DNA of 64,000 nt. It comes from Octopus vulgaris. Taxonomy: Eukaryota. The DNA is taken from NCBI GenBank assembly GCA_951406725.2, contig OX597823.1:45756001-45820000 (forward strand), given 5' to 3'. Numbering within the stretch: position 1 is the stretch's first letter; each line of letters starts with the position of its first letter. A program made the position numbers and the translations under genes. Positions 1,888-55,396 of the stretch are shown piece by piece. The notes below the pieces were generated by a model. The model ran no database searches. It had not been told where the DNA came from and saw only the letters and a list, made by a program, of their open reading frames with translations.

Positions 1888-2259
1888 CGGCACTCCGTCG
1901 GTTACCACGACGAAGGTTCCAGTTGATCTAATCAACGGAACAGCCTGACATTAACGTGCAAGTGACCGAGCATTCCACGGACGCATGTGCCCTTAACGTA
2001 GTTCTCGGGGAGATTCAGCGTGACAAAGAGTTTGACAAAGCCGGCCCTTTGAAATAGAGGTACAACAGAAACAGGAGAAAAGAGTGAGAGAAAGTTGTGG
2101 TGAAAGAGTACAGCAGGGTTTGCCACCACTCCCTGCCGGAGCCTCGTGGAGTTTTAAGTGTTTTCGCTCAATAAACACTCACAACGCCCGGTCTGGGAAT
2201 CGAAATCGCTATCCTACGACCGCGAGTCCGCTGCCCTAACCACTGGGCCATTGCGCCTC
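1888..2259 (-). mobile_element. tRNA-derived SINE, group D
   Basis: Minus strand starts gaggcgcaatggcccagtggttagg (A box) ... ttcgattccc (B-box-like); 3' stem-loop tcgtcg..cgacgg; flanked by TA/CA microsatellites. Confidence 0.8.
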
Positions 2260-2284
2260 ACACACACACGTTTGTGTGTGTGTA

Positions 2285-2390
<106 letters not shown>

Positions 2391-3149
2391 ATGTATATAT
2401 GTATGTTTCTGAGAATGCAACTATACTGAAACAATTCCCTACATATAAAAGTAGTACGGCGCTCAGGATGTGCGGTTCTTTGCAAGTTAAAAAGGTTACG
2501 TACATTCCAATACGTCATCTTAAGATCTGATGTTTTCGAGGATGTCATTTGGCTATGATTTAACTCACAGATTTGTTGAACATTTGTATTTTACCTGCAT
2601 GAGTGAACAACTGCCAAGCGTTAGGAGCTGGCCCCTGTGTTAGTGACAAGCTTTGCTTAGACCATCTTTTCTCGGTTCTTCTTGTCAACAGCTGAGTAGT
2701 GCTATCTTTGAAAAGAGCTAATTAATCACTCGGGGTGCTGCCGAACCTCACCTCTGTGATTATTTGAAGATGAAGGGACCAGTATCGCATGCCACCAACT
2801 GGTACATGTATTAGCAATTATATACTCCTAATTTGTTAGCCCCGTATGCTTCACTGCAATCCCATCACCGCAGGGAGTTTTTTGCATGTTCGTGTACCGT
2901 TCCGAATATTCAAGAGGTTCCTGTACATGAATTTGTTTTGAGTGAATAAAGTATTGCGCAACACTGAATTCACTTTCAACACTATCAGCTATAACACTGG
3001 TGGCACAACAGAATTTGAACTACCAGAAACCCAATTGCACTTAAGGTTTTTATACGAGTTTCCCTTCTAGAAGGAAGTTCTAACGAGACCTTGGGGTCCT
3101 TCACCTCTAGTGGTCAGGAGACTCTCAATTGCAGTACAAGTTTGTCAGT

Positions 3150-4215
3150 TTCTAAGGCATGTGATGCATTTGGGAAGCTTGTATCGAAATTCTGGTCGCA
3201 ATTGAACATCAAAACAGTACCTGGAGCCGAGGTCTAGCAAAAATGCATCTTCACAACGCTGGTTTATGGATGCGAGACCTAGACAACTTACCGCAGGCAT
3301 ATACAACGTCTCCAGTGATTCCGGCAGCGATGCATGCGTACTATCCTGAAGATCGCTTGGTGGTTTCATGCGCTTGATACGAGAGTATAGCAGCATGATG
3401 CATATCGAGTTCATGATTATGAAACGGCAATTTAGATGGTTTAGTCATCTTGTCAGTTTAGTATATTATGGACTGGTGTGAGGAAAAAGTGTCCAGTGCA
3501 GGAAATGCAAGCGTTTCAAAGACAATCTTAAAGATACAAAATACTACCGCTTTCGAAGAATTCGAGAACATCAAGGTAGCGCACACTGAGGCGCGCGGCT
3601 TAGTTATTAGGGTGTTGAACTCGTGGTCAAAAGATTGTGGGTTCAATTCCTAGACCGGACAATGCGTTGTGTTCTTGAGCAAAATACTTCCTTTCCCGTT
3701 GCTCCAATCCACTCAGCTGGCAAAAATGAGTAATCCTGCGACGGACTGGCGTCTCGTCCAGGTGGATAATTTATACGCCATGAAACCTAGAAACTAGCCC
3801 TTATGAGTCGGCATGACTCCAAAAGGTAACTTTATTTAATTTTACTTTACACTGAGATGAAACGTACTGGTAAATTTATATAAGATGTGAACCCTCCTCC
3901 TGAGAGGGCACAAAAGTGTCCCTTTCGTGTAAATGGTATGGTAGTGCTTCTCAAAGACAGATCTGCTCAGCTACAAGTGTACTCATGGAGATGCCACTGT
4001 CTAACAGTGTGATATCTGGCATGATCTGTCGTATACCTTGCGTAGCAGAGTGTGTCAGCCAGTGGACTCACTCGGCATTGTAGGTCCTAGCATCTAGATG
4101 GTCGGGCTGTTGATTGGACTGAGGCATAGCTTGCAGTAGGCGTGGAATGACTTGTAAGTTCCTTGCAGGCGTTAGGGGCCATATGAGACGTCATCAACGA
4201 TCTAGAGACCAAATA
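3150..4215 (+). mobile_element. RTE-clade LINE 3' fragment (decayed ORF2), interrupted by a SINE
   Basis: Reads AFGKL..TTLVYGCET*TTYRRHIQRLQ*FRQRCMRTILKIAW..KRFKDNLK..FEEFENIKVAHTE|MKR, with a C-terminal C2H2-like CSRRGMTCKFLAGVRGHMRRH. Confidence 0.8.
3588..3848 (+). mobile_element. tRNA-derived SINE, group C (V-domain-like tail)
   Basis: Head gaggcgcgcggcttagttattagg..ggttcaattcc; CORE-like gttgtgttcttgagcaaa; cctgcgacggactggcg..gtccagg; TSD acactgag at 3583-3590 and 3849-3856. Confidence 0.85.
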
Positions 4216-4415
4216 TGGGACATTTCTTTGAATTAAATGAGTCTAGGAAGTAGTATTACTCAGCCACAAATTGACTTCCACCATCCATGCATGGGGTTGG
4301 TTGGCCGCTTGGTATGTATATGTATATGCATGAATATATTTATGTATGTACGTATATATATATATATATATATATACTGATATTATGGGTAATTGTATTT
4401 TTTAACTAAGTTATA

Positions 4416-4631
4416 TTGGTTTAAAATTTTAGCACGACCCAGTCACTTTGGGGGAGAGAATAAGTCGATTACATCGATCCCAATCCACTAGTACTCAACT
4501 GGTACTTATTTTATTGACCCCAAGAGAATGAAAAGTAAAGTCAACCTCAGCAGAATTTCAACTCAGAAACGGACGAAAACCCCCTATGCATTTTGCCCAG
4601 CCGGCTTACGATTCTGCCAGCTCACCGCCTT
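4416..4631 (-). mobile_element. SINE group B (tail type B1)
   Basis: Shared core aagtcgattacatcga..ggtacttatttt..gaaa..aagtcaacctc and head end gccagctcaccgcct. Confidence 0.85.
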
Positions 4632-8971: not shown

Positions 8972-10769
8972 AATACTCATATATATAATATGCTATTCTA
9001 TCATATATATCCCATATTGCAGTAAATGCAAATTTCATGAATACTTTTGTTATACTATACGTCCGCCATATACTGGGAGCGTTTAGCGTCGTAATAGTTT
9101 TAAAACAGTCATTTCCAAGACAAGTATTTTTCTTACTACTTGGCGTATATGATTTCAAGGTCCAGAACAGCGAGGAAGAAAGCTAAATATAATAACGCTA
9201 TGAATATTCAAATTAGGGTTACTTCTTATCAGCGTTAATCCCAGTTCGTCAATGTCGTTGCTATTAAATGTTCTTATGTAATTTGGGTATTTAGATAAAA
9301 GCTATTTAGTTTTCACGTCTGTTAACTGCCTGCATAATATTTCTGGGAAATATTTTTCTGAAATACGACATCCCTTTTGAACAATAATGTTAGAACATAG
9401 CCAGTTTGATGTGGTATTTATGCTTGGATTTGTATGCGCCCCGTTGCATGCGTATATCATTATACATTTACGAGCTTCTGCGTCCATTTGTACTTGTATC
9501 CGCGTGTGTGCTTGTACGTGTATGTAGCATTAAGCACATTATATAGAGATAAATGCGTGAATAGAAATATATCTGCACTCGAATGTGTATTCTGGAAGAC
9601 ATAAGCTTTTCCAAGCTATTGTATATGAAGATTCATCACCTCGCAGCGCGTTTTGTGTTACACGTATTTTCAATGAAGATCGGAATTTTAATATACTATC
9701 GTGATATGGTATGAAACATGACTATGGCGAAGGAATTTGCTCAATGACATAGGAGAAATAAATCATCTGTCAACTGTAAAGGTAAGTAGACAAATATATT
9801 GGTTCCTGCGAAATTGAAATTTGGTTTCACCGTACACATATTTATCAATACATGTGGACATTTGTGAGTACAGGCATATACGAACTTGTATATTTATGAT
9901 GTATTGCACACGCACACTCCAACACACACACACACACACACACACAGGCGCCCGCTGTGTATGTGTGTATATATGTGTGTGCGTGTGTATGTATATATAT
10001 ATATATGTATATGGCCGATATTTAGAAATATTCGTTTAGATATAAATACATACATATACATATGTGTATCTATATATATATATATAGTTATGATTACATA
10101 TATATATAGAGTACACATACTGCTTATTGGACGAATGACATTTTAAACTGACGCACACACACACACACACGCATATATACGCAACCACATACACGTGTGG
10201 CCATATACGGCATTACTTATGTGTGTCTGCATGCGTGCCTGTGTGTATGTAGGTATGTGCTTATGTGTGCGCACGCGCGTGTGGTGAGAAAGAGCACGGG
10301 CTAAGATGGAGTAAGAGGTTTGTGTAAGAAGAAAAAAAAGCTATGCAAAAGAATGTAGTTTTGACTTGGGAGTTTCATGTATAACATTTCGGTTTAGTGA
10401 TATTAGGTATAAAAGGCAAAGAATATTTGGGTTAGAATATTATAATCTATAATAATACGCTGAAGTAGAATATTTTCATACCTCCGTAAACTCGCAGAAA
10501 ACCAATATTACGACGCTGTTTCAACCTTCCATTGAAGCCATTTCAATTCAGCTATGGAATTAATGAGCGTTCAGATTGAAAGATTGCTAATATTCTTCTG
10601 CTTAGATCTATTTTCTACATTTTTGATTGAATGTAGTCTATACTTTTACAGATTTTGAGGTGAAGTATATCTGAGATTCTCAGTTCATTTTCTGATCCCA
10701 CTAGATATCTATGATTCTCATCTTGAGGCTTATTCAAAAGAGCCTGTTTTCTTGATGTGTGGCTCAATA

Positions 10770-11202
10770 TTGATTTCAAATTTTGGCACAAGGCCAGCGA
10801 TTTCGAGTTTGAGTGGTAAGTCGATTACATTTATCCTTGTGCCCAACTGCTACTTATTTTCTCGATCTCGATGGGATGGCGAACGAAGTCAACCTCGGCG
10901 GAATTTGAACTCAGAATGTAAAGACGGACGAAATGCCGTAAAGTGCTAATGGTTCTGCCAGCTCACCGCTCTTGTGTAGCTCAATATTGATTTCAAATTT
11001 TGGCACTAGGCCAGCTGTTTTCGGGTAGGGGTGAGTCAATTACATCGAACCCCAGTGCTCAACTGGTACTTATTTTATCGATCCCGAAAGGATGGCAGGC
11101 AAAGTCGACGTAGGCGGAATTTGAACTCAGAACTTCCGGACGGACGAAACGCCCTAACGTAGCTTGTCTGGGATGCTAACGATTCTGCTAGCTCGCCACC
11201 CT
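10770..11202 (-). mobile_element. Two tandem SINE B1 copies (10770-10971, 10987-11202)
   Basis: Two core/tail units separated and flanked by three copies of tgtgtRgMtcaata. Confidence 0.85.
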
Positions 11203-17618: not shown

Positions 17619-17695
<77 letters not shown>

Positions 17696-17697
<2 letters not shown>

Positions 17698-17799
17698 CAT
17701 AGTTGTGTGGTAAGTAGCTTGCTTCCCAACCACATGGCTCCGAGTTAAGTTCCACTACATGGCACCTCAGGCATAGACGGAAACTGAAAGAAGCCCGCC

Positions 17800-17851
<52 letters not shown>

Positions 17852-17980
17852 ATATATATATATATATATATATACAGGCATAGTTGTGTGGTAAGTAGCT
17901 TGCTTCCCAACCACATGGCTCCGAGTTAAGTTCCACTACATGGCACCTCAGGCATAGACGGAAACTGAAAGAAGCCCGCC

Positions 17981-18045
<65 letters not shown>

Positions 18046-29782: not shown

Positions 29783-30052
29783 TATACGTCTGAGTGTGTA
29801 TGCGTGTGTATTTGTGTGTGTATATTTGCGAGTATTTGCGCGCAAGCTGGCGTATGAGTGAGGGCTGGTGGCATAACCCCGATGGTGCATATGCATGTGT
29901 TTTCTAGAGTGTGTCTACCAACGGGTACGGGTGGACGTATTCATGGGTATGTATGTCAGCTGTGTATATCAGCTGCGTGTGAATCAGTTCTTTGTGTATG
30001 TGTGTGTGTGCATATATGTATGTGTGTGTATATGTACGTGTGGATATATATG

Positions 30053-30125
<73 letters not shown>

Positions 30126-30133
30126 CTATATAT

Positions 30134-30571
30134 AAGCAAATTTAGCTAGTTAGAAAACTCTCAATAAGAGATTATGGTAGCAACCATGCTAAGAATATTT
30201 ATCGCCACGTCAATGTTGTTGTTCAACGTTACTAACGTTTTGAACCCAGACAGACACTGTATATATTGCAAGCAGGGGATCGAACCCCTGCCATCCTCAA
30301 GCAGACGAGCGGATCACGAAACCGAACAGTTTCGGGCTACTTGTGCCCATCTTGAGTCGTGAGCACCCGACTGCTAGAAATAACAGGATTCGCTTCAGCT
30401 CGCAATATATAGAAAAATAAGCGACCATCGGTCAACGATTTTGCAACAAGCAAAGTAGCTAGTTAGAAAAATCTCAATAAGAGATGAAAGTAGCAAATAT
30501 ACTAAGAAGTAATATTTATCGCCACATCAATGTAGCTGTTCGACGTTACTACTGTTTTAACCCCAGGCAGA
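30134..30571 (-). mobile_element. Retrozyme-like unit: ~120-bp direct repeats 314 bp apart enclosing a hammerhead ribozyme and a tRNA-like B box
   Basis: Repeats at 30134-30254 and 30448-30571; hammerhead at 30300-30375; hairpin GCAGGGG-TTCGAT-CCCCTGC at 30272-30291. Confidence 0.65.
30300..30375 (-). ncRNA. Type I hammerhead ribozyme with one core substitution (G5C)
   Basis: AGCAGUCGGGUGC-UCACGA CUCAAGA U GGGC-acaagua-GCCC GAAA C-uguucg-G UU| UCGUGA-UCCGCUCGUCUGCU. Confidence 0.75.
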
Positions 30572-30647
30572 TTCTCCACCGCGTCACTGGTGCAAACTGC
30601 ATCCTGTATGTATTGTTATAAGCTCATAACAATATCATCATCTAGAG

Positions 30648-30848
30648 CAGTGGTTTTCATCCAGGGTTCCGCCAGTACAGTGCAGGGGTTCCGCAAGAAG
30701 TTACAAAACTGCTAAAATCGGCAGTAATTTTTAATTCTCCTGTGCAGATATGTGTGCATAAGACTATTAAATTATTGCACAGAGGTTCCTCGAGCCAGTG
30801 GAATGTTTCCTTGGGGTTCCGCTCCAGCAAAAAGTTTGAAAAGCACTG
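30648..30848. mobile_element. hAT (Charlie-type) MITE, 201 bp
   Basis: TIRs cagtggttttca / tgaaaagcactg; perfect 8-bp TSD atctagag at 30640-30647 and 30849-30856. Confidence 0.9.
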
Positions 30849-32252
30849 ATCTAGAGGCTATAAATACAATTCATTCTTTGTTTTATGATAGTTACTTCAG
30901 ATGTGAACAATTTCTGCATGTTAATATCTAGTGACATCTTGGTGTATGTGATGCCATACCAGAAGGCTAAAAAACCCACTTAAGTACTATTATCATATCT
31001 TTGAACGTAAATCACATTTGGTATGTTTTTCATATATTATTTTCATGTAAAAATGTGTAAGCATTAGAGGTTAAAAACTCAATTGAATAATCTTTTTCTC
31101 CCAGTTCTTGTCTATGACACCTATCATTATAAATCAGTTTGATATTTGCTTAAAATTTGTGTGTATTATATCTTTTAAATTTCGGAGTTAAAATTCGATC
31201 TGGGCGTTGGCAAAAGCGGCATTTCAAGGTTGAATTTATTGTAAAATGGCTAATTCGAGTCGATATAATTACTGCTTTTATTGTTTTCAAAATCTTCGTA
31301 AAGATTCCTTGTTCTATACAGAAGTTAGAAACCACTTACTTTTTAGATATGGTTTAATTTTAATAAGTTTTTGGTTATTTTTCAAAACTCTAAGTTTGGC
31401 TATGCTGGCTCAAGAGTTAGCTCACAAATCTGAGGCTAAGAATGTTATGTTGACATCTTGCATACCTTACAGGATTTTATTAATATATAACACGTCTGGT
31501 ATGATATCAGATAATTCTAACATGTACATTTCCAAAATGCTTTGAAACATTTCTGCTGATATCATCGTGAGTAAATCTTTTGGAAATATATTCCAGTCAT
31601 TACTAGATGAAGTATGGAGATTATTTTAAATGACTGATACCCATAGAAAAGCCCTAAATGTCCCTAGCATTTTAAGCTTACTACACATACAGGACACTGA
31701 AAAATATAAGAAGTACTGGAAGAGCAACAGTAGGGGCAATAAATATTTTCGAGATATGCTGTGTGTTGACTGACTACACGGACTGTTTTGACAATGTATG
31801 GCTTGTGCAAAACTTCTCAGCGGAGATTATGCAAAGAAACCCCCCAAAACAACAACAACAGCAAAAATAAAAACTTAATGTGTGAAAGAAAGTGTTGTTT
31901 GTTTTAGAAGACTCTCATACTATAAAGTGTCATTTCTCATGTTTGCAAGTAAATTCTCCAGCAGAGTTGAACGTGCTTTTCCTACATTAATGAATATCAA
32001 CCTTATTCTTTTCCTTGGCATTTGTCGCCTTCTCTTTCCTAACAAACATAAATCATTGACCTGAGAGTATGTAGACGGTTTATAATATAGACTCATTACT
32101 CTCTGGAATTGACTAGAACGTATTAGCTTTATCTTTATTATAACGTTTGTTTCACACAGATGATTGGAATGATGGTCATGCATATATTCTGAATCGACTA
32201 TATTAACTCTCTATATACTTTCTCAGAAAACAGTTATACTTTCTCAAAAACA

Positions 32253-35672: not shown

Positions 35673-35917
35673 ACACTGCTAATACTATTATTCACAATGA
35701 CCTTATTTGAAAGTAAATTTCAAATATACCTCAATTAAATTCCTATTGCAAAGAACTGAAGTCATCGAGATGAATCCGCTATACCCGTGAGTAGAATTTA
35801 CCTCACAGATATTGAAAACACCACTGAAATATCCCATATACGTCTTCAAGCTTCCAGTTCAGTGAACATAATTGTAAGTGTTCTCTAACCATCACAAAAT
35901 TAGGCACTGCTTGTTTT

Positions 35918-36316
35918 TTTTACTACCCAAAAGGGCTAAGTATAGAGTGGAAAAACAAGGACAGACAACGGGATTACATCGACCCCAGTGCATAACTGGC
36001 ACTTAATTTATCGAGCCCGAAAGGATGACAGGCAAAGTCGACCTCGACAGAATTTGAACTCACAACGTGACGGCAGACGAAATACCTATTTCTTTACTAC
36101 CCACAAGGGGCTAAACACAGAGGAGACAAACAAGGACAGACGGATTAAGTCGATTACATCGACCCCAGTGCGTAAGTGGTACTTAATTTATCGACCCCGA
36201 AGGGATGAAAGGCAAAGTCGATCTCGGCGGAATTTGAACTCAGAAGGTAGCGGCAGACGAAATACCGCTAAGCATTTCGCTCGGCGTGCTAACGTTTCTG
36301 CCAGTTCGCAGCCTTA
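35918..36316 (-). mobile_element. Nested pair of SINE B2 copies (Tx1-like tail)
   Basis: Full copy at 36088-36316 abuts a headless copy at 35918-36087; tail gtccttgtttgtctcctctgtgtttagccccttgtgggtagtaaagaaat. Confidence 0.85.
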
Positions 36317-53849: not shown

Positions 53850-55396
53850 TGGTGATGGTGTGTTCACGTCCTATAAGTGACAACCGTAACTTTGAGACTC
53901 AGTCTCAACTCATGGCTCGCCAATTCATCCTACGTCGATATCCCCTCACCACTATCCACACTACCCTTGTCAGGGCACGATCTGTGGACTGTGCCTCTGC
54001 TCTTTCTCCTCGCAGCACCCACCCCACCGTTGCACGTCTCCCGTTTGCCCTCACCTACCACCCTGTTCCACCTTGCTCCTCCAGTACACCATTGTCCGAG
54101 TCTTCCGGCGACTCTAGTCCGAACCCTCCACCTCGCACATCTTCTCCAACCTACACCTTCCCTACTTCCAACGAGCTCATTACCTACGTGACCGCCTAGT
54201 CCAAGGTTTCTTCCCTAATCCCACCTCCTAGCCTGGCTCATTCCCCTGCTTCTACCCACGCTGTCACATCTGCCCCTACTTCTCCAACACCACCATCCTC
54301 ACAGGCAACCATCATCGTCCCTACCACATCACCAACTCCTTCACCTGCACTTCTAATAACGTCATTTACTGCGCCTCCTGTTTTCTCTGTCCTTCCCTAT
54401 ACATCGGCCAAACGGAACGCCACATAGCTGACCGATGCGTGGAGCACCTCCGAGATATCAGATTCGGCAATGACACCCCGTTCTCGCGCCATTTCCGTTC
54501 TACCGGTCATTCGCTGCCACATTTGTCTGTATTCCTACTGTTTTTTTTTCGCCGTGAACTGAAATTAATCTTGTCTAATCGCTACTTTGCGCCACATGGG
54601 CTCAACTCACCTCCTCACTTAATTTGACACCAACCTCACCTCCTTTCTTCGTTTGATACTGACACACACCACTCCACACACACTAGCACTGATCACTTCC
54701 CAGCACCCACATCACACACCATCCATACACCCACACACAATCTTCAAAGGCGTCAGCACACATACCACTATATGAGCAGTCACAAACACTGTTCAACTTA
54801 GAACACACTCCACGCTCCATCATGCACACTCCCACACCCACACAACCTCACAGCATCTGAACACAGACTATATATACATACACACGCAACATGCATTAAT
54901 ACACGCAGCATACATAGACAAAGATAACTTTCGCCCCCATATATACACCATATACATGCACACTGTTTGGTGACAGACAAATACACACACACACAAGCAC
55001 ACACACACGTTACACACGCACACACATATGTCAGTCACTCGCTCCTATTCACACATACACACTTACACACTCACACACTTTATTCTTACATATACACTCG
55101 CGCACGCACACCTCTTGTGATAACTAGCACTTTATTATCTCCCTTTCATTCAACCTGTTTTTTTATTATCTCCCTTTCTTTCAAACTCTTTTTTTTTCAC
55201 ATCATACACCATGTTGGACCGCTGAAGTTTTTTTTAATCTCTCTCTATTTATTTTCTGTTATTCCTTTCTGTTGAATAGCGTAGACTCGAAACGTAAAAG
55301 ATTTTGTCATTTTTTTCCACAAGCATCAAGCTAATACACTTGTTTGTTATTCATACACCTGTCTTCGTCTTTTGTTTTTCCATAAATTTCAAACTA

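Follow-up and report, generated by a model that had tools for sequence, protein, structure and literature searches.

An insertion of 482 bp on the minus strand (30134-30615) of the 64,000-nt Octopus vulgaris window analyzed here (the whole stretch of contig OX597823.1 from 45,756,001 to 45,820,000) is probably a decayed copy, originally ~1.5 units long, of a non-autonomous, non-LTR retrozyme that was mobilized by a Penelope-like element (PLE) from a likely self-processed, probably circular RNA template. Animal retrozymes are described as 170-400-nt hammerhead repeats forming self-paired circles, with PLEs proposed as their mobilizers (PMC7229834), and a preprint that ties retrozymes to PLE terminal repeats describes the mechanism as open (10.64898/2026.07.22.740005). 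An earlier note on this window had called the insertion retrozyme-like, and a 350-bp non-coding unit with a type I hammerhead bears this out. The PLE-type insertion signature, absent from that note, points to the mobilizing machinery, and the family probably adds a new member to the known animal retrozymes.

The element is one of many in the assembly (2.8 Gb in 227 contigs, microsatellite-rich). With the ribozyme region as query, the best non-self matches were 78-86% identical (best 40 of 557 candidates); other queries gave 1173-1792 first-look candidates, totals that are not copy numbers. The multi-copy family that had been proposed was confirmed at 68 distinct, dispersed loci (a main set of 44, plus 20 and 4). 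Repeat fetches of identical places and L025-L028, near-identical duplicates of L024, were left out of the counts, and the near-duplicates L005/L007 and L147/L148 were retained. Loci L024-L028 (G000:C28, 7.7-9.9 Mb) comprise at least five near-identical copies of one locus and represent segmental duplication, not new insertions. The family unit has a period of 350-351 bp and is non-coding, with no PLE coding match at the 68 loci; the GC content of its majority sequence (46.9%) slightly exceeds the range given for retrozymes (<45%), a descriptive rather than mechanistic trait. Almost all copies are dispersed, span 0.6-1.7 units and carry a single ribozyme, and chains exceed one unit at 31/44 loci (~467 bp in L002). 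Only three of the 68 loci hold two units (L056, L147 and L148); L147 alone among them keeps both cores, with CUGAGGA, GAAA and GUC in each unit. No long tandem array was found among the best 40 candidates of each of four DNA searches, and an array search with a two-unit query yielded dimers only among the scored candidates. Loci L147 (2445-3290, minus strand) and L148 (2343-3355, plus strand) represent a divergent subfamily in a 2.3-unit tandem; they are 93% identical over 536 bp, and the two units within L147 differ markedly.

Alignment to the family profile divides the insertion, all on the minus strand, into a full 350-bp unit (30615-30257) and a partial second one. Its 5' end (30572-30615; unit positions 1-46) extends 44 bp beyond the interval first reported (30134-30571), of which the direct repeats 314 bp apart were upheld. 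These repeats are the upstream copy of the repeated part (30448-30571; unit positions ~47-170) and the downstream partial unit (30134-30254), which are 82% identical at a spacing of 314-317 bp. The 314 bp previously taken as the unit arose because ~35 bp were lost at the unit junction (30254-30257; second-unit positions ~13-47 are missing), shortening the period. The insertion was thus more than unit length, as had been suggested, with ~1.5 units before the deletion and 1.4 at present. Its 3' end is at unit position 170, which is one of the two sites favored as 3' ends across the family, and the adjoining 3' flank (30044-30133) consists of a short TA run followed by a CA/TA microsatellite, the likely target. 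No target-site duplication was evident by eye at this insertion. The copy differs from the family majority by 9%. A separate element, a MITE of 201 bp with short terminal inverted repeats, lies 32 bp from the 5' end of the insertion (30648-30848), flanked by an exact 8-bp target duplication (30640-30647 and 30849-30856); we take it to be hAT-like.

The proposed type I hammerhead on the minus strand was confirmed in its layout, and the family majority restores its full core. At the locus, the core and stems II and III occupy 30320-30356. Stem I (30362-30357 with 30319-30314) leads into the core CUCAAGA (30356-30350), in which the G5 of the family is replaced by C at position 30354. After an extra U there follow stem II (30348-30334), the GAAA, a short stem III and a GUU triplet (30322-30320), with the predicted cut at 30320/30319. 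Stem I had been put at ~18 bp; it continues for ~50 pairs, both at the locus, where the 5' arm (30410-30357) pairs with a 3' arm that begins at the predicted cut and takes in the supposed T-arm (30319-30261), and in the family. Many of its G-U pairs form on just one of the two strands. Stem III is near-palindromic, with a self-duplex of -8.8 kcal/mol at the locus and -12.6 to -17.8 kcal/mol in three relatives; the strength in the relatives is consistent with the dimer mode of a short palindromic helix III (PMC4209133).

Taken singly, the fold of the locus is only modestly above chance, and it is the family alignment that makes the hammerhead solid. The 91-nt region reaches -33.1 kcal/mol on the minus strand (z -2.1; 7/200 shuffles equally good) and -24.6 kcal/mol on the plus strand (z -1.1). 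Hammerhead models, suggested earlier as a check, gave no Rfam call at the locus or in the window, none in eight relatives (E 0.01) and none in a core-intact stretch of L012 (E 10), and a genome search with RF00163 gave six matches, none related to the 350-bp unit. Across 47 aligned ribozyme regions, by contrast with the single fold, the majority shows every one of the 11 core bases, correctly ordered and spaced within a hairpin loop, an unpaired U between 9 and 10.1, a 4-bp stem II and GUC. The canonical CUGANGA expected of relatives is present in 26/47 copies, all 11 core bases with a non-G H17 in 17/47, and GUC in 36/47; judged by this alignment, the GUU at the locus is decay of the family GUC.

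Pairing in the family was scored against a named structure derived from the very copies on which it was scored: 85.7% of cells pair, compared with 38-46% in slid controls. Two-sided changes, each present in between 4 and 16 copies, affect three pairs: 105/148 in stem I (GC 18, CG 16), 116/129 in stem II (GC 29, AU 8) and 101/156 (UA 39, CG 4). A fourth such pair is contributed by L147 and L148. The covariation score was reached by 0/500 shuffles, and two of the five measures failed to exceed the shuffled sets (41 and 163 of 500). The tree of the copies is star-like (3/44 inner branches supported), a shape in which independent compensatory events are not countable, and RNAalifold returned no consensus structure for the 47 copies. 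Folded as a circle, the majority unit is 70% paired (z -7.7; opposite strand z -5.8), and five natural, decayed units gave z -4.6 to 0.0 with no strand preference. The present copy is probably dead, in agreement with the inactivation suggested earlier. Its single ribozyme carries G5C, which is listed with the core changes that prevent catalysis (PMC11875169), and so it would neither cut nor release a unit. G5 is intact in 40/47 copies.

Insertion anatomy carries the link to PLEs. Copies end at two preferred sites 58 nt apart, 14 at unit positions 108-115 and 13 at 167-173 (27/44 loci), and 0/44 end within 10 nt of the cut (unit position 299). Among 26 loci recovered with a ribozyme-only query, which has no 3'-end bias, 15 end in the two windows, a number reached in 0/5000 uniform draws. 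This distance exceeds the length given for PLE tails (30-40 bp). ATAT or TATA occurs in the first eight flank bases at 13/44 loci against a background of 10% (9/13 at the second site). The 5' ends are ragged, as from truncation, an adjacent 5' inversion is found at 16/44 loci, and in long copies the 5' neighbor is another stretch of the 350-bp unit, in no case ORF sequence common to the copies. PLE insertions are characterized by 5'-truncated partial tandems, adjacent inversions, tails and a microsatellite bias (PMC8557442), and a purified PLE protein has been reported to cut AT-rich DNA and to start at two sites within the RNA, by which the tail is defined (PMC11167929). A query placed ~10 nt 3' of the cut detected 20 new loci, of which 15 continue upstream through the cut, one begins at the cut, three begin below it and one is ambiguous; with 15/20 copies reading through, cut linear monomers were therefore not the main template.

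We infer that the template was circular, and the steps can be pictured as follows. A locus of two or more units would be transcribed, and its two hammerheads would cut the RNA, probably as a dimer via the palindromic stem III. The long stem I would then hold the ends of the monomer together while a host ligase closed the circle. A PLE protein would nick TA-rich DNA and start reverse transcription at an internal site (unit position ~112 or ~170), proceeding across the ribozyme and further around the unit, and a random stop or inversion would leave copies of 0.6-2.3 units. The rare copies with two ribozymes would serve as the next masters.

Read-through of the cut fits a circle and an uncleaved multimer alike, and the most serious competitor builds on this: a PLE-mobilized mini-element copied from linear, uncleaved multimers, with a hammerhead that descends from a PLE terminal repeat and without need of a circle. 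For the anole PLE, uncleaved RNA is used and was the dominant substrate in vitro, the ribozyme not being needed (PMC11167929), and 8/9 predicted Xenopus retrozyme dimers were uncut in vitro (10.64898/2026.07.22.740005). The palindromic stem III of the octopus family and the extra base separating position 9 from 10.1 are traits of PLE ribozymes as well (PMC4209133). The octopus ribozyme, however, is unlike the minimal PLE form, described with a helix I of 4-5 bp and a helix II of 7-8 bp (PMC4209133), in that it has a 6-bp stem I plus its extension, a 4-bp stem II and two-sided changes; moreover, the few two-unit loci are a thin template source for the many copies longer than one unit. We consider copying from linear multimers unlikely, if the best placed of the alternatives. 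Copying from a circle leads to a broader proposal that we hold tentatively, as possible rather than probable: that of an array-less retrozyme, in which the insertions document, as fossils, the copying of a circular RNA by Penelope enzymes, the two fixed internal start sites define the cis signal through which a circle with a canonical hammerhead captures the PLE reverse transcriptase (RT), and rare dimers, not satellites, are the masters. If true, it would give sequence-level evidence and a substrate for a step of the animal retrozyme life cycle.

The same insertion marks would be expected if the copies were solo pLTRs, the tail ends of an autonomous PLE of some age, and all of them are present; old families can also lose recognizable ORFs, and scoring covered the best 40 candidates per search. 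This origin is nevertheless largely refuted and appears very improbable. Upstream of long copies lies more of the 350-bp unit and never ORF sequence, an RT + GIY-YIG ORF stands directly upstream in 0/68 loci (with one PLE protein as query), and a helix I of 6 bp with a long extension and a helix II of 4 bp do not make a minimal ribozyme (PMC4209133).

Intact 781-aa ORFs with RT and GIY-YIG domains occur at many loci in the genome (GIY-YIG search, best 150 of 6136 candidates). With this ORF as the tblastn query, nothing was found adjoining the element at the 68 loci (flanks of at least 1.5 kb); the lone match, in L040, lies ~700 bp off on the opposite strand and is unlinked. The unit profile had no match in four full-length young-PLE loci and no linked match in 30 GIY-YIG loci, where one unlinked opposite-strand piece was the only hit. 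The young PLE has its own minimal hammerhead in 18/30 fetched loci and no detectable sequence in common with the unit, and the partner was probably an older PLE. The young autonomous PLE is represented by L103-L106 (in L103, for example, the ORF spans 2245-4587 and ribozymes lie at 779 and 5566). Their hammerhead is minimal, with a core of the U3-A8 type; they have two 3' ends and are inserted at TA repeats, and their terminal repeats are 99-100% identical in three of the four loci. The window itself holds a broken GIY-YIG-like PLE remnant on the plus strand (54223-54549; tblastn E 2e-7, one stop).

A SINE resembling SM-alpha, equipped with a Pol III promoter, would also join a short repeat to a hammerhead, as the earlier note had envisaged, and schistosome elements are reported to couple the two (PMC6765202). 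A perfect B-box-like string, GGTTCGANNCC, does lie 3' of the ribozyme, its sole occurrence in the window, and the hairpin described as T-arm-like stands, with GGTTCGATCCC at 30286-30276 inside it. The Pol III role does not. GTTCRANNC is found in 2/47 copies, the deciding column being C in 35 and A in 2, and by this comparison the B-box at the locus (30276-30286, minus strand) is a private mutation of the copy, a single C-to-A change in what is the 3' arm of stem I in the family, where its bases pair with the 5' arm. Neither strand of the majority unit contains an A or B box, T4/T5 runs are present inside it, no tRNA was called in the window, and the A-box-like strings of the copy (30504 and 30148) lie too far from, or behind, the B-box. 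We reject a Pol III promoter or tRNA origin; at the level of the family a SINE of this kind is refuted and highly improbable, and the SM-alpha analogy goes with it. Least plausible of all is a DNA-level foldback or MITE-like repeat with an incidental likeness to a hammerhead. In its favor, the long hairpin folds on either strand and Rfam and RNAalifold came back blank. Against it, the majority matches all 11 core positions in order and spacing with GUC, many G-U pairs function on one strand only, and the ends are polar (3' fixed, 5' ragged) instead of terminal inverted repeats.

The family is old. Copies lie 9-29% from the majority (median 14%), and repeats within one insertion are 79-90% identical (13 loci), compared with 81% between loci. 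The exact 34-nt majority core pattern has no match in the assembly, and a looser 30-nt core pattern has six, all decayed; from these patterns the family appears extinct in the assembly. Purifying selection on the genomic copies was considered and rejected, core columns being no more conserved than columns of the same base.

Among known systems, the animal non-LTR retrozymes (Cervera and de la Peña 2020, PMC7229834) are closest, and by size the nearest of those described there are the 350-390-bp repeats of mussel. Both have a non-coding unit of ~350 bp, a type I hammerhead, strong self-pairing, tandem or partial-tandem copies and autonomous PLEs in the same genome. Unlike them, the octopus family consists almost entirely of dispersed one-ribozyme copies and is old and neutrally decaying. 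At the level of sequence it agrees with a PLE-mobilized retrozyme apart from the marginal GC value and the weak evidence for tandems. A PLE link and dispersed monomers with rare dimers are common to the PLE-derived retrozymes of Li, Clavereau and Pollet (2026; 10.64898/2026.07.22.740005), whose case, as presented for vertebrates and four invertebrates, rests on co-occurrence and pLTR homology; in octopus it is the anatomy of the insertions that makes the link, and the searches turned up no homologous pLTR. With the PLE pLTR hammerheads of Cervera and de la Peña (2014; PMC4209133) the family shares the unpaired 9/10.1 base, G10.1-C11.1 and a palindromic helix III; it differs from the forms described there in its long helix I, 4-bp helix II, lack of an ORF and 350-bp period. 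PAc (PMC11167929) likewise has two internal 3' ends and AT-rich targets, and it shares A9-U-G as AUG, which is the start codon in the anole PLE ribozyme. As described for schistosomes, SM-alpha (PMC6765202) is also a short repeat with a type I hammerhead, from which the octopus family differs in having PLE-type ends and no conserved Pol III boxes.

The literature yielded no report of this family or of a cephalopod retrozyme, and supplements and repeat libraries may name it otherwise; the main text of the octopus repeat annotation (PMC13282606) does not contain "hammerhead", "ribozyme" or "retrozyme". The class is already known; its dependence on PLEs has been a proposal since 2020, and the 2026 preprint supports it with arguments from homology. 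What the octopus family contributes is a set of PLE insertion fingerprints on a canonical-hammerhead unit, a connection left as a hypothesis in the published accounts available. It also names two candidate RT start sites, testable with purified PLE protein on linear versus circular RNA, and adds a ribozyme family missed by Rfam scans. Its importance is limited by the apparent extinction of the family here, the lack of a PLE partner among the loci searched and the probable death of the copy in the window.

Further repeats were encountered alongside the family. Three of the genome matches to RF00163 (L032, L033 and L036; match 1501-1608) belong to another hammerhead repeat family, unrelated to this one, whose stem II holds a long insert; next to L032 lies a partial copy in inverted orientation, which is again PLE-like. 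The other three (L031, L034 and L035; match from 1501) are Rfam Hammerhead_1 matches unrelated to the 350-bp unit. Two-copy tandem repeats of 180-216 bp occur in the window at 10756-11157, 17619-18045 and 35915-36266, and presumably belong to common SINE families. Within the ribozyme, loop 2 and the bulge in stem I may resemble the tertiary contact of the schistosome ribozyme. A9, the extra U and G10.1 spell AUG (30350-30348 of the window, minus strand; columns 113-115 of the family alignment A2), and the frame that opens there closes after ~20 codons in the family majority.
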